DNA from: a virus
Lineage: Duplodnaviria > Heunggongvirae > Uroviricota > Caudoviricetes
IMG/VR virus record: IMGVR_UViG_2713896901_000003
Span: 1-9,599 of that record
DNA length: 9,599 nucleotides
Reading direction: 5' to 3' (one strand)
Position numbers and translations under genes: made by a program. The notes beneath the pieces were generated by a model. It saw only the letters and a program-made list of their open reading frames with translations, was not told where the DNA came from and ran no database searches. Shown piece after piece: positions 1 to 9,599 of this stretch (the first letter of the stretch is position 1; the number at the start of each line of letters is the position of its first letter).

Positions 1-24
1 AATTTCAAAGGTTAGTTTTTTCAT
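1..24 (-). CDS. ninB: NinB, first 8 codons only; the gene runs off the left edge of the window
   Basis: The reverse complement of 1..24 reads ATG AAA AAA CTA ACC TTT GAA ATT = MKKLTFEI. This matches the N-terminus I recall for lambda NinB. The position downstream of the replication genes is the usual start of the nin region. Confidence 0.6.
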
Positions 25-40
25 GACTTCCCTCTCCCCC

Positions 41-71
41 AAATAAAAAGGCCTGCGATTACCAGCAGGCC
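41..71 (-). terminator. Intrinsic terminator between the 89-aa ORF and ninB
   Basis: A 7-bp GC-rich stem, GGCCTGC (50-56) / GCAGGCC (65-71), with an 8-nt loop. On the minus strand it is followed by TTTTTATTT (complement of 41-49). Confidence 0.7.
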
Positions 72-97
72 TGTTATTAGCTCAGTGATGTAGATGG

Positions 98-367
98 TCA
101 TTGCTTCATCTCACTTTCCATTTCATCAATGTCAACGTCATCAGGAAGGTGGGAGCAATACGCCGCTATACCATGATGATTTATCTCATACCCTTTAAAC
201 GTTACCATCTGGCGCGTAATCTCAACTTCGTTCAGGAATCCGCCATCGCATAACTGCCTGGCTATTTTCGATTTGGTCTGGATTATTGGTAGTGCCTGTT
301 CTTTCAAAGCGTATGATATTTGTGCATCCCATGCCTTTTCGAGAATGGCTAATTGTTTTTTATTCAT
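98..367 (-). CDS. Hypothetical 89-aa protein in the lambda ren / P22 ninA slot
   Basis: ORF-track entry. Its ATG (365-367) overlaps the helicase TGA stop (367-369) as ATGA, which suggests translational coupling. An intrinsic terminator follows. I recognise no motif in the protein. Confidence 0.7.
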   Translation of the reverse strand: MNKKQLAILEKAWDAQISYALKEQALPIIQTKSKIARQLCDGGFLNEVEITRQMVTFKGYEINHHGIAAYCSHLPDDVDIDEMESEMKQ

Positions 368-1803
368 CAGAATCCTCCTTTCTTCTTGGACTGCGGTTCC
401 TCGCGTTCACGGCGGCGCATTTCAGCAGACTGTTGGTCTGTGTCATAAATAGCGCCATTTGCCTGAATGCAATACACCGTGCCGGTATTGCCATGACGAT
501 TGAGACGAAGGATTAGTTCGGTTTCACCAGGTGGAACACTGTCATCAAAAGCACCTTCACGATGGATCCCCACCCAATAATCGCAATCCTGTTCAATCTG
601 CCCTGTATCTCGGGAGTCACTTGGTAATGGGCGTTTATTGGTTCGGCTTTCCAGTGCGCGGTTAAGCTGTGTCAGAAGCACAACAACGCAATCAAGCTCT
701 TTGGCAAGGTTCTTCAGTCCTTTGGTGATCATGCCGTAGGCAAGGTCGTTACGATCGGCCTTTTCAGCGGTCATTAGTGTCAGGTAATCGACAAGAATCA
801 TGCCAACGCATCCTTTTTCTCGTTTGATTCGACGGCTTTCGCTGACGATTTGAGCCAAAGATAATCCCGGCGTGTCGTCGATGTAAAGCAGGTCGATTTC
901 ACTCAAGCGATTGGCTGTTTCTATCGCCCTGTTGAAGTCACCATCGTAATCACCCTGATAGCCGTCATCAGCGTCATTTGTCGCCGGAAGGTAAAAAATA
1001 TTCGGGTTAACACCTGACTTCTGCCCTACCAGTTTTTCCAGTATCTGGTCACTTGGCATTTCAAGGCTGAACATCAGAGCGGGCTTTTTCTCATGCACTG
1101 CGCAGTTGATTGCCATCTGGCTGTATAGCGTCGTTTTCCCCATCTTAGGGCGAGCGCCAATGACAAACAGAGAGCCTTTCACCAGACCTTTCGGTGACAG
1201 CATCCTGTCCAGCGATGGGATCCCTGTGCTCATTCCTCGTTGTTCGCCTGACGGGTCAAATCGCTTCTCAAGGTCGCTAACCCAGTCTTCCATGACCTCA
1301 CCAAATGAGCGAAGGCCGCGACGCGATCCGGTTTTTGCATGGTCTGTCAGTTGCGTGAAAATCGCCTGAATAGCTTCGTACTTCTGCGTCGCAGTCATTC
1401 CGTTGCGGGAATAGAGCAATTCCGTCGCTTCAGTCATGCGGTTGATGGCGTAGCGTTCCATTGCGGTTTCGCGAACCTGCATTGCATAGGCAACGATGTT
1501 TGCGGCGCTTGGCGTGTTCTTTGCGATCTCAGCGATATAAGCAAAACCGCCAACAGACGCCGTTAACGATTTACGCTCCAGTTCATCGAAAAGCGTCAGG
1601 CCATCTACTGGCTTTTGCTCCCGGTGCATTCTGATTATTTCTTCGAAAAGGATTTTGTGTGGTCGGCTGTAAAATGAATCAGGCTTCAGCATCGCCAGAA
1701 CTTTCTGGACGCGCTCACTGCTGTCATCATCCAGAAGCAATCCACCAATCACCGCCTGCTCTGCCTCGATGCTATGGGGCGGCGCATAAAAATTATCGGT
1801 CAT
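367..1803 (-). CDS. DnaB-family replicative DNA helicase (functional analogue of P22 gene 12)
   Basis: The N-terminus PPHSIEAEQAVIGGLLLD is typical of DnaB. Other DnaB motifs are present: Walker A GARPKMGKT, the VDYLTLM motif and the LTQLNR motif. I prefer the ATG at 1803 (GAGGG 8 nt upstream) over the GTG at 1818 given in the track. The start overlaps the end of the upstream initiator gene. Confidence 0.95.
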   Translation of the reverse strand: MTDNFYAPPHSIEAEQAVIGGLLLDDDSSERVQKVLAMLKPDSFYSRPHKILFEEIIRMHREQKPVDGLTLFDELERKSLTASVGGFAYIAEIAKNTPSAANIVAYAMQVRETAMERYAINRMTEATELLYSRNGMTATQKYEAIQAIFTQLTDHAKTGSRRGLRSFGEVMEDWVSDLEKRFDPSGEQRGMSTGIPSLDRMLSPKGLVKGSLFVIGARPKMGKTTLYSQMAINCAVHEKKPALMFSLEMPSDQILEKLVGQKSGVNPNIFYLPATNDADDGYQGDYDGDFNRAIETANRLSEIDLLYIDDTPGLSLAQIVSESRRIKREKGCVGMILVDYLTLMTAEKADRNDLAYGMITKGLKNLAKELDCVVVLLTQLNRALESRTNKRPLPSDSRDTGQIEQDCDYWVGIHREGAFDDSVPPGETELILRLNRHGNTGTVYCIQANGAIYDTDQQSAEMRRREREEPQSKKKGGF

Positions 1804-2692
1804 CGTGTTCACCCTCACGAACTTTCAGGTAGGTATTATCGTTAAGCAGGAAATCAAATCCCTTTTTGTGCCAGACAGTTCCGCGTTGATGGTTTGGGCG
1901 CTCTTCGAACATCCATCGGCAATTTTCGCCTACGTAGCTCAAATAATTTCTCCAGTCCTGCATCGAGAACCCATGCCCGTCAAGCTGGCGGGTTATAACT
2001 CCGGCTTTGCGCCAGAACGTTCGGATCTGGTTTTTACGCTTGTCATTCAGTGCGCGGATTCTTGGCGCTTCAGGAAGGATTTCGTGGTAAGCATCGACAA
2101 CATCCTGACAGCTGACGGAAGGTTTTTTCTTGTCAGACTTTTTGTCTGCTGTGGCACTCTCTAATACGTCAGTATTAGAGATAATATTATTATATTCTTT
2201 ATCTGTGGTAATTTGCTGGTAATCTGCTGGTACTGTATTGCTTACAGGCATTGGTATTGCTGGCTTTGAGGTGGTAATTTGCTGGTAATCTGCTGGTACA
2301 AAATTTGACTGATAATCGTCATATTTCTCTACCGAGAAAACTGAGAATTTACCGTGTGAAACCCAGTCAATCATGCCGAGTTTTTTGAACTTTCTAAGCA
2401 GGTACTGAACGCGATCTGGTTTGAGTCCTGTTTCAAACGCCAGAGAGTTTCTACCGCCAAGTAGCTTCCCTCTGCCTACCAGAATTTCTCCTGCGTCAGT
2501 CATTACATACTCAGGCGTATGCTTTGCTTTGAGGATTAAGTGAACCCACAGATGCGCTGCTTCTGCGTCCTTGTAAAACGGCACATCCATAATTTTACGG
2601 TGCAGCAAGGCATACCCCTTACCGCTGCTTTGATGCGGTCGTTGTAGCCTTCTGGCCTCTCTGGCTTCGGCTAGATTAGATATGTTACTCAT
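1793..2692 (-). CDS. Replication initiation protein (functional analogue of lambda O / P22 gp18) containing the ori iterons
   Basis: It lies directly upstream of the helicase gene and overlaps it. Iterons plus an AT-rich tract sit in the middle of the gene, as in lambda O. There is an AAGGAG Shine-Dalgarno 7 nt upstream of the ATG at 2690-2692. Confidence 0.85.
2205..2299. repeat. Putative phage origin iterons, with the adjacent AT-rich unwinding tract at 2161..2204
   Basis: The 29-bp sequence GTGGTAATTTGCTGGTAATCTGCTGGTAC occurs twice without mismatch, at 2205-2233 and 2271-2299. Each copy holds two GGTAAT(T/C)TGCTGG units. A degenerate unit, GGTATTGCTGG, lies between them at 2253-2263. The flanking tract CTAATACGTCAGTATTAGAGATAATATTATTATATTCTTTATC is very AT-rich. 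Confidence 0.8.
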
Positions 2693-2831
2693 GACCTTTC
2701 TCCTTCTGCATCAGCTTCACTTTTTCCAACTCAGCCCGGAATCGACCAGGCTGCTTGAAGCTGGACAGGAAGCGATCACGTAGTATGTGTTTGTGAATTT
2801 TGTCCTGGTAAGGACTGAGTTGTTTTGTCAT
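2685..2831 (-). CDS. Small basic 48-aa ORF between cII and the replication initiator (not in the ORF track)
   Basis: My translation is [48 protein letters not shown]. An AGGAG lies 5 nt upstream of the ATG (2829-2831). Its stop overlaps the initiator start as ATGAGTAA. As I recall, P22 has an 'orf48' of the same size in the same position. Confidence 0.5.
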
Positions 2832-2842
2832 AATTACTCCTG

Positions 2843-2919
2843 TGGATTGATCCAGTAATGACCTCAGAATTCCATCTGGATTTGTTCAGAACGCTCGGTC
2901 TTGCACACCGGGCGTTTTT
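2843..2919 (+). ncRNA. oop: oop-like antisense RNA overlapping the 3' end of cII
   Basis: The plus strand reads GATCCAGTAATGACCTCAGAATTCCATCTGGATTTGTTCAGAACGCTCGG...CCGGGCGTTTTTT. This is nearly the lambda oop sequence as I recall it. It ends in the hairpin GCTCGGT/ACCGGGC plus a T-run (2893-2920). The 5' end is approximate. Confidence 0.75.
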
Positions 2920-3163
2920 TCTTTGTGATTCCATCAAGCGCATACTTAAAAGCCCTGCTAATTGGACTGATGTCTGATGCCATTCCGAAAGCACACAAGA
3001 CCGAAGCAATAAACCGCCAGTCCGTTCTGCTTATCTTCGATTCATGACAGCCAATCATCTTTGCCAGACCACGCTGGGTAAGCGTTGACAGGTTGATGAG
3101 TAAATCTGTTTCTGCGCGATCAACGTCACGCTGTGATAGTTTGCTGTAACTTGTTTGTTCCAT
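2864..3163 (-). CDS. cII: CII transcriptional activator (lysogeny establishment)
   Basis: The C-terminus [19 protein letters not shown] matches the lambda CII C-terminus ([17 protein letters not shown]). An HTH-like segment, [17 protein letters not shown], is present. The position between nutR and the replication genes fits. The N-terminal two thirds differ from lambda. Confidence 0.9.
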
Positions 3164-3173
3164 TTCTTATGAT
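3141..3173 (+). promoter_or_regulatory. Candidate pRE with a CII-binding direct repeat
   Basis: The sequence is TTGC-TGTAAC-TTGT (3141-3154), then 13 nt, then TATGAT (3168-3173), then TTCC. This mirrors the lambda pRE layout (TTGC-N6-TTGC, 13 nt, AAGTAT, TTCC). It overlaps the cII start codon on the opposite strand, as in lambda. Confidence 0.5.
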
Positions 3174-3190
3174 TTCCAATAGTGAATATT

Positions 3191-3213
3191 ACGCATCTGT
3201 TGATGCGTTTTTT
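3191..3213 (+). terminator. Hairpin plus T-run between nutR and cII; the functional orientation is ambiguous (tR1 position)
   Basis: A perfect 7-bp stem, ACGCATC (3191-3197) / GATGCGT (3202-3208), with loop TGTT. On the plus strand it is followed by TTTTTG. On the minus strand it is preceded by an A-run and followed only by AAUAUUCACUAUU. Confidence 0.5.
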
Positions 3214-3215
3214 GT

Positions 3216-3253
3216 GGGGACGAATCATCCCCGACCTGATTGTTTAAAGAGCG
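3216..3253 (-). promoter_or_regulatory. nutR (boxA plus boxB)
   Basis: The minus strand reads CGCTCTTTAAACA (boxA, complement of 3241-3253), an 8-nt spacer, then GGGGATGATTCGTCCCC (boxB hairpin, complement of 3216-3232). The identical 17-nt boxB recurs at nutL. Confidence 0.8.
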
Positions 3254-3260
3254 GTGTTAC

Positions 3261-3485
3261 TTATGCTGCCTGATTCGGTTTTGGAAACAGGTGTGGCAAA
3301 TCGGGGCGAATTTCGTAAGCCTTGATCTGCCCTCCAGTGGCGTTAACGATGGCGGTAACTTTCTCTGGAGAGACCAACCCGCCTTTCAGCCATTTGTGTA
3401 CTGCTGGCTGCGTTACACCACACTTGTCGGCAAGGCGCTTTTGGCTACCGACAATTTTCAAGGCTCGTTGAATTACTAAATTCAT
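3261..3485 (-). CDS. cro: Cro-like repressor (small HTH protein)
   Basis: It is the first gene of the pR transcript. It has an HTH-like segment, SQKRLADKCGVTQPAVHKWL. I prefer the start at MNLVIQ (ATG 3483-3485, AGAGG 7 nt upstream). The track start at 3506 lies only about 6 nt from the predicted pR transcription start and has no Shine-Dalgarno. Confidence 0.85.
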   Translation of the reverse strand: MNLVIQRALKIVGSQKRLADKCGVTQPAVHKWLKGGLVSPEKVTAIVNATGGQIKAYEIRPDLPHLFPKPNQAA

Positions 3486-3518
3486 GAGCATACCTCTTGT
3501 GGTCATTACTTATAACCA

Positions 3519-3547
3519 AAGATAACTCAAGTTATAAAAAATAGCAA
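3519..3547 (-). promoter_or_regulatory. pR promoter
   Basis: The minus strand reads TTGCTA (complement of 3542-3547), 17 nt, TATCTT (complement of 3519-3524). The -10 hexamer is the same as at pL, and the operator geometry is also the same. Confidence 0.7.
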
Positions 3548-3584
3548 TAACCTTTGTTATTTTACTTTGGATAACCGTAGTTAT
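3522..3584. promoter_or_regulatory. Tripartite right operator OR1-OR3 (ATAAC-N4-GTTAT palindromes)
   Basis: ATAACTCAAGTTAT lies at 3522-3535, ATAACCTTTGTTAT at 3547-3560 and ATAACCGTAGTTAT at 3571-3584. Centre-to-centre spacing is 25 and 24 bp. The sites overlap the pR -10/spacer, abut both -35 elements, and overlap the pRM spacer/-10. Confidence 0.8.
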
Positions 3585-3589
3585 AGATT
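3561..3589 (+). promoter_or_regulatory. Candidate pRM promoter
   Basis: TTTACT (3561-3566), 17 nt, TAGATT (3584-3589). TAGATT is the lambda pRM -10 hexamer. The predicted transcription start falls at or next to the cI ATG at 3597, which implies a leaderless cI mRNA as in lambda. Confidence 0.55.
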
Positions 3590-3596
3590 TGTGGGT

Positions 3597-4304
3597 ATGA
3601 AAACATTCGCAGAAAGACTAAATGCAGCCATGAGCTCAGCAGGTGTGTCGCAATCACAGCTTGCTGACATGGTTGGAATATCTCAGCCAGCCATACAGAA
3701 GATGTCATCCGGTAAAACAAACGGATCTCGCAAGATGGTTGAATTAGCCAATGCTTTAAAAGTACGCCCTGAATGGCTTAGCTCTGGTATTGGTGAAATG
3801 AGGGATGGTACACATGAAGAACCATCCAATGTCCGTGAATCATCTTTAAAAGCTGTGGTATGGGAAGATATTAAAAGAAACGATGACGAGTTTGTCGCGT
3901 TGCCTCTTCTTAACGTTTCGCTTTCAGCTGGAAACGGTAGCTGCGAGCTAGAGGAATCATCAGAGTTCTCTTTGGTTTTCAGAAAGTACTATCTGAAAAA
4001 GATGGGGGTATCTGAAAGATCAGCCAAGCTAGTTAGGGTTGTAGGGCAAAGCATGGAACCAACGCTTCACGACGGAGATGTTGTTGGTGTTAACACACAA
4101 GATACCACAATCAGAGATGGTAAAACCTACGCTATTTGCCAGTCTGATTTGTTACGAGTAAAAACATTAATCGCCACCCCTACATCGGTGATAATCAGAT
4201 CAATAAATCGCGAAGAGTACCCAGATGAAGTAATGGATAGAGATGAATTTCATGAAACCGTAAGGATTATTGGCAGAGTATTCTGGTCGTCTCATAGTTG
4301 GTAA
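3597..4304 (+). CDS. cI: CI prophage repressor (N-terminal HTH plus C-terminal LexA/S24-type autocleavage domain)
   Basis: HTH segment SQSQLADMVGISQPAIQKMSSG. A candidate Ala-Gly cleavage site lies in LSAGNGS. The catalytic Ser context is GQSMEPT and the Lys context is LRVKTL. It is divergent from cro across the operators. I prefer the ATG at 3597 over the TTG at 3567 in the track, because that TTG lies inside the operator/promoter region. Confidence 0.9.
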   Translation: MKTFAERLNAAMSSAGVSQSQLADMVGISQPAIQKMSSGKTNGSRKMVELANALKVRPEWLSSGIGEMRDGTHEEPSNVRESSLKAVVWEDIKRNDDEFVALPLLNVSLSAGNGSCELEESSEFSLVFRKYYLKKMGVSERSAKLVRVVGQSMEPTLHDGDVVGVNTQDTTIRDGKTYAICQSDLLRVKTLIATPTSVIIRSINREEYPDEVMDRDEFHETVRIIGRVFWSSHSW

Positions 4305-4344
4305 CCGATAATCAGAAGAAGACTTACGGAAGTGCGGAGGGATA

Positions 4345-4641
4345 ATGGAATTTCTGATAGTTTTTGTTGTTGTTTTGGTCATCATTCTTTTTGTTTTGCT
4401 AAGCATTAGCAAAAAGCTATCTCAAATGATTGAACATAGCTCTAATCGCGCAAAAGAAGAAGACCATCTAATTGATATAAAAGAGATTCTCTCTGATATA
4501 AAAATCACATTAGATGAAATAAAATACACAACAGATCTAATTGAACAGTATAAAATACCAACCCCAAACGAAAGAAAAGCAATAGATCAATATCGTATTG
4601 ACTTAGAAATCGACGAAATGCTAAGCAAAAGAAAAGACTAA
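4345..4641 (+). CDS. 98-aa single-pass membrane protein with an acidic helical C-terminal domain, in the rex slot; function unknown
   Basis: GGAGGG Shine-Dalgarno just upstream of the ATG. The N-terminal hydrophobic segment EFLIVFVVVLVIILFVLLSI is followed by KK. The rest is I/L/E/K/D-rich with a heptad-like pattern. It starts 41 nt after the cI stop on the same strand and is followed by a strong terminator. Confidence 0.8.
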   Translation: MEFLIVFVVVLVIILFVLLSISKKLSQMIEHSSNRAKEEDHLIDIKEILSDIKITLDEIKYTTDLIEQYKIPTPNERKAIDQYRIDLEIDEMLSKRKD

Positions 4642-4645
4642 AAAC

Positions 4646-4673
4646 ACCCGGCCTCAGCGCCGGGTTTTCTTTT
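4646..4673 (+). terminator. Intrinsic terminator ending the cI operon
   Basis: A perfect 7-bp GC-rich stem, ACCCGGC (4646-4652) / GCCGGGT (4659-4665), with a 6-nt loop, followed by TTTTCTTTT. Confidence 0.85.
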
Positions 4674-4838
4674 CCTGCCGTCCCCCACCCAATCAACCAT
4701 CCTCATCATAGACAAGCATCAAGCCAAAGGTAGCACTTTCACCCCGCACGCAAGCCCTCAAACACCAATCAATCAGCAACATTTACAAAAATAAAATACC
4801 TTTGTTATCCATCACTTATAACTTATTTACCATAAAAT

Positions 4839-4877
4839 ATAAACTAAGTTATTGACCACACCTATAACCTAAGTTAT
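4839..4877. promoter_or_regulatory. Left operators OL2 and OL1
   Basis: ATAAACTAAGTTAT at 4839-4852 has one mismatch to the OR consensus. ATAACCTAAGTTAT at 4864-4877 is perfect. Spacing is 25 bp. More degenerate candidates lie at 4795-4808 (AATACCTTTGTTAT) and about 4818-4831. Confidence 0.7.
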
Positions 4878-4881
4878 CTTT
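4853..4881 (+). promoter_or_regulatory. pL promoter
   Basis: TTGACC (4853-4858), 17 nt, TATCTT (4876-4881). OL1 lies in the spacer/-10 and OL2 abuts the -35, a mirror image of pR. Confidence 0.75.
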
Positions 4882-4926
4882 AAGCCATCAGCAGGACGCA
4901 GGAAGCCAAACGGAACAGATTGGCAG

Positions 4927-4964
4927 GCTCTTTAACATTGATGGAATGGGGATGATTCGTCCCC
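4927..4964 (+). promoter_or_regulatory. nutL (boxA plus boxB)
   Basis: GCTCTTTAACA (4927-4937) matches the boxA consensus. A 10-nt spacer follows, then GGGGATGATTCGTCCCC (4948-4964), which is identical to the nutR boxB. Confidence 0.8.
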
Positions 4965-5119
4965 ACCAAAGAGAGGTTGGCTTTGGGATTTGATGAATGT
5001 GCAGGTCGATGCACTAACGCTTAGCGGTGAGCACCTGCCTTTGGGGCAGGATGGGTAGCCGCAATCAGGAGATCGACACCTGACATCAAATCACCAAAGT
5101 CAATCATCGGAGGTATCCA

Positions 5120-5326
5120 GTGAAAGCAAGAGAGATTCGCAAACTCGAACGCGCTCGTAAGCACAAAGAGGCGACAGCAAAACGTAAAAATATTGACCGT
5201 GTTTCAATGGTGGTTTCGCTAGCAGGAGCGAATAGGAAGAAGGTTGAATGTGGTTCGTGCTGCCTGCCAAACGTAGCTCTTTACGCAGCAGGCTACCGGA
5301 AATCAAAACAACTGACAGCAAGATGA
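5120..5326 (+). CDS. N: N-type transcription antiterminator (P22 gp24-like C-terminal half)
   Basis: GTG start with GGAGG 6 nt upstream. The N-terminus is arginine/lysine-rich: KAREIRKLERARKHKEATAKRK. The C-terminal IDRV...SLAG...VALYAAGYRKSKQLTAR resembles P22 gp24 as I recall it (IDRVTKAISLAGTRQKEVEGGSVLLPGVALYAAGHRKSKQITAR). It is the first gene after pL/nutL. Confidence 0.85.
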   Translation: MKAREIRKLERARKHKEATAKRKNIDRVSMVVSLAGANRKKVECGSCCLPNVALYAAGYRKSKQLTAR

Positions 5327-5376
5327 CTTGTGTTGGTCGCCAGAAAATGAAATTAGGCAGCAAACCACTTATTTGA
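5326..5376 (+). pseudogene. Fossil 3' end of a lambda/phage-21-type N gene
   Basis: It translates as TCVGRQKMKLGSKPLI followed by a stop. Compare the lambda N C-terminus ITCSGRQKIKGKSIPLI and the phage 21 N C-terminus VTCVGRQKIKLGSKPLI, both as I recall them. It lies in the -1 frame relative to the intact N gene and begins at that gene's stop codon. Confidence 0.6.
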
Positions 5377-5387
5377 GAGGAATTAAT

Positions 5388-6011
5388 ATGTCATCAATCC
5401 GCTTAACTACGAGAATGAAAGAGGAAATCGCTCGTAACGCTTTAATTAAGTCTGGGGTTTTCACTGAACTTGAAGAAGTAACAAAGTTAAAGAACCAGCT
5501 TGCACTTGACGCCAGAGTTATTGCGTTTGGCGGAAAAAAGAAAACTGAGGAAGTGGACAAGCTGGCATCAAACTTAATGGCTATAAGTGAAGAACTTCAA
5601 AAGGTGGGATGTTCATTTTACTCATGCGATGTTCGTTCTACATCAATTTATCTGACTGTATCTGGCAGAAGGGTGGGATGGCATTCATATGGGAAAGACG
5701 GCAACGGTGAAGATATATTGCTTCCCACCCCAGAAAAAGATAAATGCATGTTTGATGCAGAACACGAAATAACAAAAAGGTTTGATGAAATCTGCGCATT
5801 GCAACAAAAACTTGAATCCAGGAAAAAGGATATCGAATCAAATGTATGGGCTGCTTTGAACTCAGTCACAACAGTTAAGCGACTTATTGAAGTTTGGCCT
5901 GAAAGCAAAGAATTGCTACCAAAAGAAGCAGATAAAGCAAGTGCAGCACTTCCTGCTTTACGGGTAGAAGATTTGAATAAGATGATTGGACTTCCTTCCG
6001 AGGCCGCATAA
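5388..6011 (+). CDS. Hypothetical 207-aa protein, first cargo gene after N
   Basis: ORF-track frame. I prefer the ATG at 5388 (GAGAGG 7 nt upstream) over the TTG at 5328, which would overlap the N fossil. The gene is AT-rich relative to the lambda-like block, and its own terminator follows. Confidence 0.85.
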   Translation: MSSIRLTTRMKEEIARNALIKSGVFTELEEVTKLKNQLALDARVIAFGGKKKTEEVDKLASNLMAISEELQKVGCSFYSCDVRSTSIYLTVSGRRVGWHSYGKDGNGEDILLPTPEKDKCMFDAEHEITKRFDEICALQQKLESRKKDIESNVWAALNSVTTVKRLIEVWPESKELLPKEADKASAALPALRVEDLNKMIGLPSEAA

Positions 6012-6026
6012 TCGGCCTTTATTTTT
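6001..6026 (+). terminator. Intrinsic terminator after the 207-aa gene
   Basis: Stem AGGCCG (6001-6006) / CGGCCT (6013-6018). The loop CATAAT contains the stop codon. TTATTTTT follows. Confidence 0.65.
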
Positions 6027-6074
6027 GGCATAAACAACAGAATAAACACTGCACTGAATTATTTGAGGTTAGAT

Positions 6075-6545
6075 ATGACAAAATCATGGAGCGTACCTTT
6101 TCCTGAATCAGAAACTGAACATGAGGGAATGCCTGTTTTCTGGAGATTCCAGGCGACAGTTGAAGAAGATGGAATCAAAATATTCGCACTTCAATATATA
6201 GCTTTTCATCAGACAGAGCATTATGCATGGTTGGTTCCTGCGCATTGGATTGTTAATTTTAAACCAGCACCAAATCAGTGGTTACAGGAATGGAAACAAA
6301 GGAGAAATAGATATGCAATTAAGAAAGTAGCAAAAAATGCAGAAAGATCTTTTGCATTCCCAACGAAGAAACTTGCCATTGAAAGTTTATTGCGCCGGAA
6401 GAAATACCATTTAATGAGAATCAAACAAGATTTGGCTGTTGTATCAACTCTTGTTGATGGGATGAAGAATATTGATACATCAACACCAGATATTGAATAT
6501 AACTTTGGACACAACCAAGAAACAGAAAATTGGGTGTTTTATTAG
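6075..6545 (+). CDS. Hypothetical 156-aa protein with a strongly basic central segment
   Basis: ORF-track frame. I prefer the ATG at 6075 (GAGG 6 nt upstream) over the TTG at 6063. The central segment is KQRRNRYAIKKVAKNAERSFAFPTKKLAIESLLRRKKYHLMRIK, flanked by acidic and aromatic ends. Confidence 0.85.
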   Translation: MTKSWSVPFPESETEHEGMPVFWRFQATVEEDGIKIFALQYIAFHQTEHYAWLVPAHWIVNFKPAPNQWLQEWKQRRNRYAIKKVAKNAERSFAFPTKKLAIESLLRRKKYHLMRIKQDLAVVSTLVDGMKNIDTSTPDIEYNFGHNQETENWVFY

Positions 6546-6557
6546 TACGAATAAGCA

Positions 6558-6589
6558 CTGTGTATTCATTCCAACGAGTGAATACACGG
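6558..6589 (+). other. Long stem-loop in the intergenic region after the 156-aa gene
   Basis: A perfect 9-bp stem, GTGTATTCA (6560-6568) / TGAATACAC (6579-6587), with a 10-nt loop. It can be extended by 2 further pairs, one of them a G-U wobble. Confidence 0.6.
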
Positions 6590-6649
6590 AGCAATGTCGC
6601 TCGTAACTAAACAGGAGCCGACTTGTTCTGATTATTGGAAATCTTCTTT

Positions 6650-6675
6650 GCCCTCTAATGTGAGGGCGATTTTTT
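6650..6675 (+). terminator. Intrinsic terminator upstream of the 122-aa gene
   Basis: Stem GCCCTC (6650-6655) / GAGGGC (6662-6667) with loop TAATGT, followed by GATTTTTT. Confidence 0.7.
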
Positions 6676-6695
6676 ATCTATGAGGATATGAATAG

Positions 6696-7064
6696 ATGTC
6701 AAACATCAAAAAATACATCATTGATTGCGACTGGAAAGCATCAATAGAAATTGAAATCGACCATGACGTAATGACAGAGGAAAAACTTCACCAGATTAAT
6801 AATTTCTGGTCAGACTCTGAATACCGACTCAATAAACACGGCTCTGTATTAAATGCTGTATTAATCATGCTGGCGCAACATGCTCTGCTTATAGCAATTT
6901 CAAGCGACTTAAATGCATATGGTGTTGTGTGTGAGTTCGACTGGAATGATGGAAATGGTCAGGAAGGATGGCCTCCAATGGATGGTAGCGAAGGAATAAG
7001 AATTACCGATATCGATACATCAGGAATATTTGATTCAGATGATATGACTATCAAAGCCGCCTGA
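6696..7064 (+). CDS. Hypothetical, highly acidic 122-aa protein
   Basis: ORF-track entry with GAGGA upstream. By my count the translation has 22 Asp/Glu against 8 Lys/Arg. The acidity is concentrated in the C-terminal third: FDWNDGNGQEGWPPMDGSEGIRITDIDTSGIFDSDDM. Confidence 0.85.
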   Translation: MSNIKKYIIDCDWKASIEIEIDHDVMTEEKLHQINNFWSDSEYRLNKHGSVLNAVLIMLAQHALLIAISSDLNAYGVVCEFDWNDGNGQEGWPPMDGSEGIRITDIDTSGIFDSDDMTIKAA

Positions 7065-7089
7065 GCGCTGCGTTACCGCATACCAATAA

Positions 7090-7110
7090 CGCTTCACTCG
7101 AGGCGTTTTT
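7090..7110 (+). terminator. Intrinsic terminator between the cargo genes and cIII
   Basis: Stem CGCTTC (7090-7095) / GAGGCG (7100-7105) with one G-U pair and loop ACTC, followed by TTTTT. Confidence 0.6.
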
Positions 7111-7136
7111 CGTTATGTATAAATAAGGAGCACACC

Positions 7137-7301
7137 ATGCAATATGCCATTGCAGGGTGGCCTGTTGCTGGCTGCCCTTCCGAATCTTTACTTGAACGAA
7201 TCACCCGTAAATTACGTGACGGATGGAAACGCCTTATCGACATACTTAATCAGCCAGGAGTCCCAAAAAATGGATCAAACACTTATGGCTATCCAGACTA
7301 A
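7137..7301 (+). CDS. cIII: CIII, inhibitor of FtsH (HflB) protease (54 aa, not in the ORF track)
   Basis: My translation is [54 protein letters not shown]. This is essentially lambda CIII as I recall it. AAGGAG lies upstream of the ATG. Confidence 0.9.
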   Translation: MQYAIAGWPVAGCPSESLLERITRKLRDGWKRLIDILNQPGVPKNGSNTYGYPD

Positions 7302-7413
7302 ATTCACTATCGCCACTTTTATTGGCGATGAAAAGATGTTTCGTGAGGCCGTCGACGCTTATAAAAAATGGATATTAATACTGAAACTGAGATCAAGCAA
7401 AAGCATTCACTAA
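7270..7413 (+). CDS. kil: Kil, host cell-division (FtsZ) inhibitor, 47 aa
   Basis: [47 protein letters not shown] matches lambda Kil as I recall it. The gene overlaps the 3' end of cIII as in lambda. The 89-aa ORF in the track is an upstream in-frame extension of it. Confidence 0.85.
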
Positions 7414-7784
7414 CCCACTTCCCTGTTTTCCTAATCAGCCCGGCATTTCGCGGGCGATATTTTCACAGCTATTTCAGGAGTTCAGCCATGAACGCTTATT
7501 ACATTCAGGATCGTCTTGAGGCTCAGAGCTGGACGCGTCACTACCAGCAGATCGCCCGTGAAGAGAAAGAGGCAGAACTGGCAGACGACATGGAAAAAGG
7601 CCTGCCCCAGCACCTGTTTGAATCGCTATGCATCGATCATTTGCAACGCCACGGGGCCAGCAAAAAAGCCATTACCCGTGCGTTTGATGACGATGTTGAG
7701 TTTCAGGAGCGCATGGCAGAACACATCCGGTACATGGTTGAAACCATTGCTCACCATCAGGTTGATATTGATTCAGAGGTATAA
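7368..7784 (+). CDS. gam: Gam, RecBCD inhibitor (138-aa long form; the 98-aa GamS form starts at the ATG at 7488)
   Basis: [15 protein letters not shown]...[15 protein letters not shown]...[10 protein letters not shown] is near-identical to lambda Gam as I recall it. An internal start at 7488 has CAGGAG upstream. Confidence 0.95.
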
Positions 7785-7789
7785 AACGG

Positions 7790-8575
7790 ATGAGTACAGC
7801 ACTCGCAACGCTGGCAGGGAAGCTGGCTGAACGTGTCGGCATGGATTCTGTCGACCCACAGGAACTGATCACCACTCTTCGCCAGACGGCATTTAAAGGT
7901 GATGCCAGCGATGCGCAGTTCATCGCATTGCTGATCGTCGCCAACCAGTACGGCCTTAATCCGTGGACGAAAGAAATTTACGCCTTCCCTGACAAGCAGA
8001 ACGGCATCGTTCCGGTGGTGGGCGTTGATGGCTGGTCCCGCATCATCAATGAAAACCAGCAGTTTGATGGCATGGACTTTGAGCAGGACAATGAATCCTG
8101 TACATGCCGGATTTACCGCAAAGACCGTAATCATCCGATCTGCGTTACCGAATGGATGGATGAATGCCGCCGCGAACCATTCAAAACCCGCGAAGGCAGA
8201 GAAATCACCGGACCGTGGCAGTCGCATCCCAAACGGATGTTACGGCATAAAGCCATGATTCAGTGTGCCCGTCTGGCCTTCGGATTTGCTGGTATCTATG
8301 ACAAGGATGAAGCCGAGCGCATTGTCGAAAATACCGCATACACTGCAGAACGTCAGCCGGAACGCGACATCACTCCGGTTAACGATGAAACCATGCAGGA
8401 GATTAACACTCTGCTGATTGCCCTGGACAAAACATGGGATGACGACTTATTGCCGCTCTGTTCCCAGATATTTCGCCGCGACATTCGCGCATCGTCAGAA
8501 CTGACACAGGCCGAAGCAGTGAAAGCTCTTGGATTCCTGAAACAGAAAGCCTCTGAACAGAAGGTGGCTGCATGA
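7790..8575 (+). CDS. bet: Bet (Red-beta) single-strand annealing recombinase
   Basis: The 261-aa product [37 protein letters not shown]... is near-identical to lambda Bet as I recall it. Confidence 0.95.
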
Positions 8576-9252
8576 CACCGGACATTATCCTGCAGCGTAC
8601 CGGGATCGACGTGAGAGCTGTCGAACAGGGGGATGATGCGTGGCACAAATTACGGCTCGGCGTCATTACAGCTTCAGAAGTTCACAACGTGATAGCAAAA
8701 CCCCGATCCGGAAAGAAATGGCCTGACATGAAAATGTCCTACTTCCACACCCTGCTTGCTGAGGTTTGCACCGGTGTGGCTCCGGAAGTTAATGCTAAGG
8801 CGCTGGCCTGGGGAAAACAGTACGAGAACGACGCCAGAACCCTGTTTGAATTCACTTCCGGCGTGAATGTTACTGAATCCCCGATCATCTATCGCGACGA
8901 AAGTATGCGCACCGCCTGCTCTCCCGATGGTTTATGCAGTGACGGCAATGGCCTTGAGCTGAAATGCCCGTTTACCTCCCGGGATTTCATGAAGTTCCGG
9001 CTCGGTGGTTTCGAGGCCATAAAGTCGGCTTACATGGCCCAGGTGCAGTACAGCATGTGGGTGACGCGAAAAGATGCCTGGTACTTTGCCAACTATGACC
9101 CGCGAATGAAGCGTGAAGGCCTGCATTATGTCGTGGTTGAGCGGGATGAAAAGTACATAGCGAGTTTTGACGAGATGGTGCCGGAGTTCATCGAAAAAAT
9201 GGACGAGGCACTAGCTGAAATTGGTTTTGTATTTGGGGAGCAATGGCGATGA
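8572..9252 (+). CDS. exo: Exo (Red-alpha) 5'-3' dsDNA exonuclease
   Basis: The 226-aa product [40 protein letters not shown]... is near-identical to lambda Exo as I recall it. Its ATG overlaps the bet stop as ATGA. Confidence 0.95.
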
Positions 9253-9431
9253 AGCATCCTCACGATAATATCCGGGTAGGCGCGATAACTTTCGTCTACT
9301 CCGTTACAAAGCGAGGCTGGGTATTTCCCGGCCTTTCTGTTATCCGAAATCCACTGAAAGCACAGCGGCTGGCTGAAGAGATAAATAATAAACGAGGGAC
9401 TGTATGCACAAAGCATCTCCTGTTGAATTAA
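9243..9431 (+). CDS. Homologue of lambda orf60a (function unknown)
   Basis: [52 protein letters not shown]... matches lambda orf60a as I recall it. It overlaps the exo stop. Confidence 0.8.
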
Positions 9432-9595
9432 GAACGAGTATCGGGATGGCACATAGCCTCGCTCAAATTGGAGTCAGGTTTGTGCCAATACCAGTAGAAA
9501 CAGACGAAGAATTTCATACGTTAGCCACATCCCTTTCACAAAAGCTGGAAATGATGGCGGCGAAAGCAGAAGCAAACGAGAGAGACCCGGCATGA
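9404..9595 (+). CDS. Homologue of lambda orf63 (function unknown)
   Basis: [41 protein letters not shown]... matches lambda orf63 as I recall it. A further ATG at 9592 probably starts the next gene, which runs off the window. Confidence 0.8.
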   Translation: MHKASPVELRTSIGMAHSLAQIGVRFVPIPVETDEEFHTLATSLSQKLEMMAAKAEANERDPA

Positions 9596-9599
9596 CAAC

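Follow-up and report, generated by a model that had tools for sequence, protein, structure and literature searches.

An accessory interval of a lambdoid pL operon that carries an Nmad5-family gene, a gp45-type gene, PreS and ea10

Results

Layout of the N-to-cIII interval

The window analyzed here was the whole 9,599-nt stretch of the IMG/VR virus record IMGVR_UViG_2713896901_000003 (positions 1 to 9,599), and the interval under study spanned positions 5388–7110. The interval contained three plus-strand ORFs, ORF1 (5388–6011), ORF2 (6075–6545) and ORF3 (6696–7064), which encoded proteins of 207, 156 and 122 aa, as the initial annotation had reported. Of the antisense ORFs, five that lay within the interval or next to it had no PHROG match and were rejected as genes. 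The dN/dS values ranged from 0.06 to 0.31, indicating that the genes are real and under selection. The GC content of the interval was 38.9%, compared with 45.2% in the left flank and 50.0% in the right flank. The AT-richness that had been pointed out was thus confirmed, but it was not peculiar to this interval, as the lambda counterpart, from ral and sieB to ea10, had an equally low GC content (39.8%).

The pL region (4818–4880, plus strand) comprised the operator-like repeats TATAAACTAAGTTAT and TATAACCTAAGTTAT and the promoter-like site TTGACC-17-TATCTT found by the promoter scan, with direct and inverted repeats across 4818–4877. It was followed by a putative nutL site (4928–4965, plus strand), consisting of the boxA sequence GCTCTTTAACA and a boxB-like hairpin whose fold was computed; positions 4879–4945 were 95.5% identical to the mEp235 stretch that contains an annotated boxA. 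The N antiterminator gene (5120–5326, plus strand; Pfam N_peptide, E = 2.7e-16) lay to the left of the interval, as expected, and encoded a short form of 68 aa with a GTG start. The tblastn results obtained with the HK97 and 933W N proteins indicated that its C-terminal half was of the HK97/933W type, and positions 5261–5377 were 93–95% identical to these two phages. A conserved linker (5323–5377, plus strand) followed N; its 3' end read …CCACTTATTTGAG, and it ended in TTATTTGAG, a motif that recurred at 6059–6067. In HK97 and 933W this linker is followed by gp45, and in mEp235 by the Nmad5 gene. In another frame, the linker encoded the remnant of a C-terminus of lambda/Nun type (MTCVGRQKMKLGSKPLI, then a stop). 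A frameshifted N pseudogene was considered for this lambda-like C-terminus and was rejected because HK97 and 933W show the identical relic after intact N genes.

The right-hand boundary was marked by the cIII RNA thermoregulator (7124–7182, plus strand; Rfam RF01804, 88.5 bits, E = 4.5e-21) at the start of cIII (CDS 7137–7301). In the Rfam scan, this element alone passed the threshold; an S15-leader RNA candidate scored 18 bits, below the 39.5 needed, and was rejected.

Lambda ea10 and the PreS sRNA in the right half of the interval

In the lambda record, the slot between N and cIII is occupied by ral and sieB. Local alignment revealed that identity to lambda (97.5%) began at position 6555 and extended over PreS, the terminator tL2a, ea10, the terminator that follows it and the genes from cIII to exo, and that a further lambda-like patch of 43 nt lay at 6014–6056. 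The initial annotation had set the onset of near-identity at about 7065 and had assigned none of the three proteins to a lambda gene. However, ORF3 (plus strand) shared 121 of 122 residues with lambda Ea10 (DUF2528), from which it differed by a Y11C substitution; it matched PF10800 with 160.9 bits (cut-off 22, E = 1.5e-47), its flanking DNA was 97.5% identical, and its placement upstream of cIII was the same. Since ORF3 is lambda ea10, this gene has been retained, and only ral, orf28 and sieB are absent relative to lambda. The proposed replacement of ral, sieB and ea10 was therefore correct for the first two and wrong for the third. The ea10 module spanned 6678–7077 and was absent in HK97 and mEp235. 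The Ea10 protein was acidic (pI 4.3), and acidity is a trait of some DNA-mimic inhibitors. Previous studies have reported that Ea10 is dispensable (PMC10695390) and is made abundantly in lambda (PMC3961180).

Upstream of ea10, an island (6549–6677) containing the PreS sRNA was almost invariant across lambda, HK97, mEp235 and 933W. Compared with lambda, positions 6555–6677 had two base differences only, both in a hairpin loop, and the stretch between the hairpins was identical. PreS (also LPR1), an Hfq-dependent sRNA, could be placed at 6589–6676 (plus strand), and is marked by the sequence GCACTGTGTATTC…; the 5' end is approximate, being set 88 nt upstream of the terminator U-tail from the published length only. 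The assignment follows from sequence, as the element, which in lambda lies between ral and ea10, ended in the GC-rich tL2a hairpin and U-tail, and its computed fold had an energy of −32.9 kcal/mol (z −4.7). In lambda, and for lambda only, PreS has been described as an RNA of ~88 or 68 nt that binds Hfq and activates dnaN, raising dnaN translation through Hfq and aiding lytic replication (bioRxiv 10.1101/2024.10.31.621285). The terminator tL2a, named in the same report, corresponds to positions 6648–6676 (plus strand) and forms the PreS 3' end. The initial annotation had listed this terminator at 6650–6675 and had overlooked the sRNA that ends in it.

ORF1 as a stand-alone Nmad5-family protein

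ORF1 (5388–6011, plus strand) occupied the slot held by ral, orf28 and sieB in lambda and encoded a stand-alone protein of the Nmad5 family. Residues 4–203 aligned with positions 1–206 of the 206-position profile PF18757 (237.4 bits, cut-off 27, E = 2.2e-70), and the PHROG match was phrog_1965. The protein was 94% identical to mEp235 gp37 and to the HK244 protein, its orthologue is likewise named Nmad5 by PGAP, and its dN/dS was 0.18–0.31. A profile search of 1.84 billion representatives returned 2669 matches (clusters at 50% identity); almost all of the best 150 were stand-alone proteins of ~200 aa, and no domain fusion was found among these 150. In 143 diverse representatives, the near-invariant residues were R5, I14, A18, R43, G48, G93, T162, L166, W170, P171, E172, L176, P178, L196, N197, G201 and L202. 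The predicted structure (AlphaFold2, pLDDT 83) did not resemble an enzyme fold, and residue conservation revealed no catalytic positions. The model suggested that Nmad5 is probably not an enzyme and that it looks like a non-enzymatic helical adaptor, not a base-modifying enzyme.

In prophages of E. coli, Serratia, Providencia, Klebsiella, Pantoea and Erwinia, the Nmad5 gene was promoter-proximal, with the repressor on one side and cIII, kil or recombination genes on the other, and in three lineages it had its own terminator. The promoter-proximal placement across six genera hints at a specific early function. Other contexts were found as well. In the virulent Shigella phage B2, the Nmad5 homologue adjoined thymidylate synthase and lay near DNA polymerase genes, and in Pseudomonas phage Aergia (an M6-like Yuavirus) it adjoined thymidylate synthase, with a DNA polymerase further downstream. 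In a Providencia prophage, Nmad5 lay upstream of a DUF2800 protein, an Enc34-type ssDNA-binding protein and a family A DNA polymerase, and in SPN3UB it followed the replication genes, within the nin region.

The names of the Nmad domains reportedly originated with Iyer and colleagues in 2013, and the family name Nmad5 rests on guilt by association. The name itself, and the presence of homologues in M6-like phages with hypermodified thymidine, would suit a role of Nmad5 in phage DNA base modification that shields the genome from restriction. We consider this role highly improbable. The association with nucleotide or base-modification genes was seen only in the virulent phages B2 and Aergia; the 9.6-kb window encoded no thymidylate-synthase homologue, kinase, glycosyl- or aminoacyl-transferase or methylase, no such enzyme was recognizable beside Nmad5 in the lambdoid prophages inspected, and the predicted structure is not that of an enzyme. 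The literature searched contained no published biochemical activity for Nmad5.

On the basis of the same contexts, Nmad5 could instead assist phage DNA replication or nucleotide metabolism as an accessory factor, perhaps as an adaptor that recruits or modulates a replication or recombination protein, rather than act as a counter-defence protein; in the present phage it might then serve the Red and replication functions of the same early programme. The homologues of B2 and Aergia within replication and nucleotide-metabolism modules, the Providencia and SPN3UB contexts near replication genes, and the helical, adaptor-like predicted fold without a catalytic constellation are all consistent with this role. 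However, the lambdoid Nmad5 gene precedes recombination genes and lies far from replication genes of the O/P type, and most lambdoid phages replicate well without it, the gene being carried by 211 of 5426 complete E. coli genomes. We therefore regard this role as conceivable but rather doubtful.

ORF2 as an in-operon module

ORF2 (6075–6545, plus strand) matched phrog_1636 over all of its 156 positions (E = 7.3e-112) and was 98.7% identical to HK97 gp45 and 99.4% identical to 933W L0079, with a dN/dS of 0.06–0.09. The gene lay in a 498-bp module (6057–6554, plus strand; GC 36%) that was flanked by GCACTG at both ends and inserted at a point matching lambda 34040–34045. Lambda, mEp235 and the Stx1a phage JNE122398 lacked the module at exactly this joint. 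A profile search of 5.8 billion proteins yielded no informative relatives and none with an informative Pfam domain, and the literature searches on L0079 and HK97 gp45 returned nothing relevant. The AlphaFold2 model, built from a 20-sequence alignment, had a pLDDT of 54 and was for that reason kept out of the fold search.

The module recalls the morons, a concept that reportedly goes back to Juhala and colleagues in 2000, in being an extra gene of lower GC content between sequences that are contiguous in related phages. It differs from them in having no promoter-like site upstream, and the terminator after ORF2 belongs to the conserved PreS element. ORF2 is thus an in-operon module and not an autonomous promoter-gene-terminator unit.

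Terminators and predicted expression of the interval

Between positions 4300 and 7500, six terminator-like sites with a hairpin and a T-run were found, compared with 2.6 ± 1.6 in shuffled sequences, and the five on the plus strand were all intergenic or at gene ends. Three of the hairpins lay in the interval (6000–6019, 6648–6669 and 7088–7107), each followed by its tail, with fold energies of −11, −14.2 and −10.3 kcal/mol and z values of −1.9, −4.9 and −4.2, respectively. With a GC-rich hairpin, a T-run and a position on the transcribed strand, the three sites can be classed by sequence as predicted intrinsic terminators. The hairpin and T-run that had been proposed for each gene were therefore found, but two of the three, including tL2a, are lambda's own and not specific to the cargo.

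The first site, T1 (6000–6026, plus strand), spans the Nmad5 stop codon, and its 5' arm is formed by the codons for the protein end EAA and the stop. It was the weakest of the three hairpins, as 8 of 200 shuffles folded equally well; T1 was retained downstream of Nmad5 in Pantoea and Erwinia, where it showed compensatory changes. Its 3' arm and T-run, with the downstream bases up to GCACTG, constituted a linker (6014–6056, plus strand) that was 97.7% identical over 43 nt to lambda 34082–34040, which lies directly after ral. The third site (7088–7112, plus strand), between ea10 and cIII, was common to lambda, 933W, HK97 and mEp235, and we take it to be probably tL2b. The lambda records NC_001416 and J02459 contain no annotated terminators for this part of the genome, so the name tL2b is tentative.

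In the promoter scan, none of the three ORFs was preceded by a promoter-like site, and no terminator-like site was found on the plus strand between pL and position 6000. ORF2, ea10 and the Red genes lie beyond predicted intrinsic terminators and should therefore be expressed only under N antitermination, in line with the initial annotation. N dependence should not extend to ORF1, which precedes the first terminator downstream of pL. Against an N-independent ORF1 transcript, Rho-dependent termination between N and ORF1 is conceivable, and mEp235 has a hairpin terminator at that place, between Nun and Nmad5.

Assortment of the modules among phages and prophages

Local alignments with lambda, 933W, HK97, mEp235 and the Stx1a phage indicated that the genes form individual modules, joined to one another at short conserved linkers, and every combination in the slot was represented among these phages and the window; the modular layout that had been suggested was thus borne out. 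The window shares with lambda the operon, its orientation and its low GC content; it differs by the Nmad5 gene replacing ral, orf28 and sieB, by the gp45-type insertion, and by a different and shorter N allele. In 933W, the order is N, L0079, ssb/ea10, cIII, kil, gam, bet and exo, which many Stx phages share; the N 3' end and linker are alike, and positions 6059–9041 were 98% identical, but 933W has no Nmad5 gene, and L0079 directly follows the N linker. In mEp235 (also in HK244) and the Stx1a phage JNE122398, the Nmad5 gene, its upstream linker and its terminator were as in the window (94–96% identity). The Stx1a phage continues with PreS and ea10 through a lambda-type joint and differs in lacking the gp45 module only, whereas mEp235 lacks both gp45 and ea10 and, unlike the window, has Nun upstream.

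The closest arrangements were found in E. coli prophages (95NR1, ST131-type O25:H4 and others), with the order Nmad5, hypothetical protein, DUF2528 and cIII onward and 97.1–97.5% identity over the whole interval; RefSeq annotations already show the identical three-gene arrangement, for example in strain 95NR1. The 95NR1 match began at 5261 and continued to the window's end, and in this prophage, the single one inspected, the immunity region and the N allele differed from those of the window. No record matched the interval at 99% or better.

The three genes had been regarded as one cassette, and their co-occurrence was counted in the 5426 complete E. coli genomes. ORF2 was present in 598 (11%) and ea10 in 1479 (27%), besides the 211 with ORF1. 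The ORF1–ORF2 joint occurred in 48 genomes and the ORF2–ea10 joint in 284, and all three genes were adjacent in 18. These 18 matched at ~97% identity and are consistent with one shared prophage, as most were near-identical (97.1%) and lay at similar chromosomal positions. The results demonstrated that ORF1, ORF2 and ea10 assort independently and reassort freely and do not form one cassette.

Discussion

In the present study, we conclude, with a probability of about 0.82, that the interval constitutes a proximal and non-essential accessory segment of the leftward early (pL) operon of a lambdoid phage or prophage, recombined from four independently circulating modules. These would be the Nmad5 gene with its own terminator, the HK97 gp45/933W L0079 gene, PreS with tL2a, and ea10 with the pre-cIII terminator; the joints would lie at the TTATTTGAG motif that follows N, at GCACTG upstream of PreS, and at the terminator sequences. 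Transcription from pL would cross nutL and produce N and Nmad5 in a first, N-independent transcript ending at T1. N-modified polymerase would then pass T1, tL2a and the third terminator, allowing synthesis of the gp45-like protein, Ea10, cIII, kil, gam, bet and exo, and transcripts terminating at tL2a, or processed near it, may give rise to PreS.

The initial annotation had interpreted the three genes as an early-expressed anti-defence or host-takeover cassette, which would functionally replace ral and sieB, each gene neutralizing a defence. Lambda holds ral and sieB in the same slot, all three families were confined to early-left operons in the prophages examined, Nmad5 is promoter-proximal in six genera, and the acidity, dispensability and abundance of Ea10 would also fit. 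We nevertheless consider such a cassette unlikely. The genes assort separately rather than together, and ea10 is not new cargo. Homology searches, which had been proposed as a check, identified ORF1 as Nmad5 (PF18757), ORF2 as gp45/L0079 and ORF3 as Ea10, but gave no match to a defence family: searches of PADLOC, functional PHROG and NCBIfam with all three proteins returned nothing meaningful, PDB sequence searches returned no solved-structure match, and homology to characterized anti-defence proteins (Ral, DNA mimics of the Ocr/Ard type and others) was found neither in sequence nor in structure. In the literature searched, the sole experimental link of these proteins to defence was a gain-of-function K-to-E point mutation in a Dhillonvirus nmad5, by which the phage escaped Tmn; the gene resisted cloning, apparently owing to toxicity (PMC11846954). 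Deletion of this nmad5 left Tmn sensitivity unchanged (PMC11846954), and thus the wild-type Dhillonvirus Nmad5 is not an anti-Tmn factor.

Within the modular reading of the interval, Nmad5 might be an early factor of lambdoid prophages whose promoter-proximal place is conserved, transcribed here together with N ahead of T1. As an adaptor without enzymatic activity, it would disarm or evade a sensor of the host and would substitute functionally for ral and sieB in this slot. This proposal is tentative, and we consider it unlikely. If it were true, the lambda half-terminator after ral would be a scar of the exchange between Nmad5 and ral.

No part of the interval is new: each one is known from published phage genomes, and RefSeq annotations of E. 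coli genomes already show exactly this arrangement. The value of the present analysis is in part corrective: because the interval retains ea10 and the PreS sRNA, it does not represent a wholesale swap of the lambda accessory genes. Collectively, the interval provides a base-resolved example of the shuffling of lambdoid early-left cargo at terminator and sRNA linkers, involving three widespread early proteins, Nmad5, gp45/L0079 and Ea10.

Gene content of the interval between N and cIII

The window was found to cover an early region of lambdoid (pro)phage type, whose leftward operon is encoded by the + strand. Genes for a DnaB-type helicase, an O-like replication protein, cII and cro lie on the minus strand, and the + strand carries, in order, cI (3567-4304), a 98-aa ORF, a bidirectional terminator, pL with its operators, nutL, N, the interval under study (5388-7110), cIII, kil, gam, bet and exo. 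The initial annotation had described this interval as AT-rich and composed of three genes, which was borne out: ORF1 (5388-6011, +), ORF2 (6075-6545, +) and ORF3 (6696-7064, +) encode 207, 156 and 122 aa, respectively, and the GC content was 38.9%, compared with 45.2% in the left flank and 50.0% in the right. This low GC is that of lambda's own accessory interval. All three genes were under purifying selection (dN/dS 0.06-0.31), and none of five antisense ORFs tested matched a family.

The three proteins had been regarded as unassignable and near-lambda identity as starting at about 7065; both statements required revision. Local alignment revealed that window 6555-9599 corresponds to lambda 34045-31001 at 97.5%, and that an extra 43-nt patch (6014-6056) corresponds to lambda 34082-34040, directly 3' of ral. 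ORF3 is Ea10 of lambda, from which it differs by a single substitution (121/122 residues identical; Pfam DUF2528, E = 1.5e-47); thus ea10 is retained rather than replaced, as had been proposed, and the genes missing relative to lambda are limited to ral, orf28 and sieB. ORF1 matched the Nmad5 family over its full length (PF18757, 237 bits) as well as phrog_1965; its counterpart in phages mEp235 and HK244, an unnamed protein, was 94% identical. ORF2 matched phrog_1636 over its full length, with 98.7% identity to HK97 gp45 and 99.4% to 933W L0079, and gave no match to Pfam families.

A further element had been overlooked. Positions 6648-6676 are the lambda terminator tL2a, and an RNA of ~88 nt ending at tL2a has been described as the Hfq-dependent sRNA LPR1/PreS, which in lambda is made during lytic growth, activates the translation of dnaN and aids phage replication (2024 preprint, bioRxiv 10.1101/2024.10.31.621285). 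The PreS element was nearly invariant in the window, lambda, HK97, mEp235, 933W and one E. coli prophage, whereas its flanking genes differed. The island of PreS and tL2a (6549-6677) spans ~125 nt; a 401-nt query including it had matches in 2239 of 5426 E. coli genomes, mostly over the island portion.

Two other features of the early region were observed. The 98-aa ORF (4345-4641, +) has 30% GC, an N-terminal transmembrane helix and a match to phrog_18389 (no assigned function), and is followed by a strong bidirectional terminator (4646-4665) matching the end of lambda rexB. Lying between cI and this terminator, it occupies the rexAB slot and is a candidate for an exclusion or defence gene expressed in the lysogen. 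At 68 aa and with a GTG start, N (5120-5326) is unusually short; it has a distinct arginine-rich N-terminus joined to a C-terminal half of the HK97/933W type.

Modular organization and linkage

A base-resolved map was built from alignments to HK97, 933W, mEp235, a Stx1a-converting phage and a RefSeq prophage. The 3' end of N (HK97/933W type) and a linker (5261-5377), whose last bases are TTATTTGAG, are followed by the Nmad5 module (5378-6056), as in mEp235; the gp45 module (6057-6554), with GCACTG at both edges and TTATTTGAG recurring at its left end; PreS with tL2a (6555-6677); the ea10 module (6678-7077), missing from HK97 and mEp235; and, from 7078, a terminator and cIII leader that the compared phages all share. 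Just 3' of the N stop (5323-5377), the linker contains in another frame a relic of the lambda/Nun-type C-terminus (MTCVGRQKMKLGSKPLI*). The same relic was observed behind the N genes of HK97 and 933W, and directly upstream of Nmad5 in mEp235. The linker at 5323-5377 acts as a conserved joint for the exchange of post-N modules.

Filled and empty slots exist in every combination among the compared phages. The first slot holds the ral block (ral, orf28 and sieB) in lambda, which has PreS and ea10 and lacks gp45; with the first slot empty, 933W has gp45, PreS and ea10, and HK97 has gp45 and PreS; with Nmad5 in the first slot, mEp235 has PreS alone, Stx1a-JNE122398 has PreS and ea10, and the window has gp45, PreS and ea10. 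The interval is the 933W order (N, L0079, ea10, cIII) plus an mEp235-type Nmad5 module after N or, equally, the Stx1a-JNE122398 order plus a gp45 module before PreS. The earlier inference of modularity was right.

The co-occurrence data did not support the three genes travelling as a unit. Among 5426 complete E. coli genomes, ORF1 was carried by 211, ORF2 by 598 and ea10 by 1479; the ORF1-ORF2 joint occurred in 48 and the ORF2-ea10 joint in 284, whereas only 18 had the three genes next to one another. Most of these 18 gave near-identical matches at similar chromosomal positions and look like carriers of one shared prophage. ORF1, ORF2 and ea10 do not form a cassette. The arrangement, whose genes PGAP labels Nmad5, hypothetical protein and DUF2528, is already known from public genomes at ~97% identity and is not new.

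Terminators and predicted expression

The three reported hairpins with T-runs were recovered at 6000-6019, 6648-6669 and 7088-7107, with fold energies of -11, -14.2 and -10.3 kcal/mol and z-scores of -1.9, -4.9 and -4.2, respectively; six terminator-like sites were detected within 4300-7500, compared with 2.6 +/- 1.6 in shuffles. Two of these terminators are lambda's own. The first terminator, T1 (6000-6026), overlaps the Nmad5 stop codon, and its 5' arm is formed by the codons of the conserved C-terminal ...EAA. The hairpin was also found 3' of Pantoea and Erwinia Nmad5 genes (~54% protein identity), with compensatory changes in both arms (GAGGCCG/CGGCCTT versus GAGGCTGC/GCAGCCTT); T1 is therefore part of the Nmad5 module. 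Of T1, lambda retains just the 3' arm and T-run, directly after ral and within the 43-nt patch, where the fold is insignificant. This remnant resembles a scar left by an exchange between the ral block and the Nmad5 gene inside the hairpin loop, an exchange whose direction we infer.

The terminator scan, to which Rho-dependent sites are invisible, found no terminator-like site on the + strand from pL to 6000, which leads us to expect Nmad5 together with N on a first, N-independent transcript. ORF2, PreS read-through, ea10 and the Red genes lie downstream of terminators and, judging from this layout, should need N. A hairpin between Nun and Nmad5 in mEp235, however, bears against the N-independent first transcript. 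A further terminator-like hairpin (7438-7455, +; GCCCGGC...GCGGGC with a T-rich tail) lies inside the gam frame (7368-7784) in the lambda-shared region and may also belong to the tL2 cluster of lambda.

Predicted functions of the encoded proteins

ORF1, ORF2 and Ea10 had no match to defence or anti-defence models, named NCBIfam models or solved structures. The AlphaFold2 model of Nmad5 (pLDDT 83) combined a helical bundle with a small beta element, together with a C-terminal segment that is conserved. The family comprises 2669 clusters at 50% identity, and nearly all of the best-scoring 150 representatives were stand-alone proteins of ~200 aa. Across 143 representatives, only R5, I14, A18, R43, G48, G93, T162, L166, W170, P171, E172, L176, P178, L196, N197, G201 and L202 were near-invariant, a pattern that does not resemble an active site. 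The gene is positioned close to the start of the leftward operon in lambdoid prophages of E. coli, Serratia, Providencia, Klebsiella, Pantoea and Erwinia, with the repressor on one side and cIII, kil and recombination genes on the other; its surroundings in virulent phages and in one Providencia prophage are thymidylate-synthase, DNA-polymerase and SSB genes. Just upstream of Nmad5, several inspected Serratia, Klebsiella and Erwinia prophage loci had a gap of ~0.4-0.6 kb without a called gene, which may harbour small unannotated N-like antiterminators.

The sole Nmad5 experiment found in our literature search concerned Dhillonvirus, in which a K-to-E change in nmad5 conferred escape from the Tmn host defence system, deletion of the gene did not, and the gene resisted cloning, apparently through toxicity (PMC11846954). 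The data fit an adaptor touching DNA metabolism or a sensor and do not show anti-defence activity; a base-modifying enzyme is argued against in the lambdoid early-left context. The ORF2 protein is basic (pI 9.1) and tryptophan-rich, and its structure model was of too low quality for use. Its family was found almost exclusively in Enterobacterales prophages, always in the early-left operon, adjoining N in some and xis and int in others. Ea10 is acidic (pI 4.3); in lambda it is non-essential and abundantly produced.

The anti-defence role proposed for the interval is a guess equally applicable to thousands of sequenced prophages. What remains of value is that Nmad5 has a conserved early position and a private terminator, and that the PreS/terminator island serves as a recombination joint.
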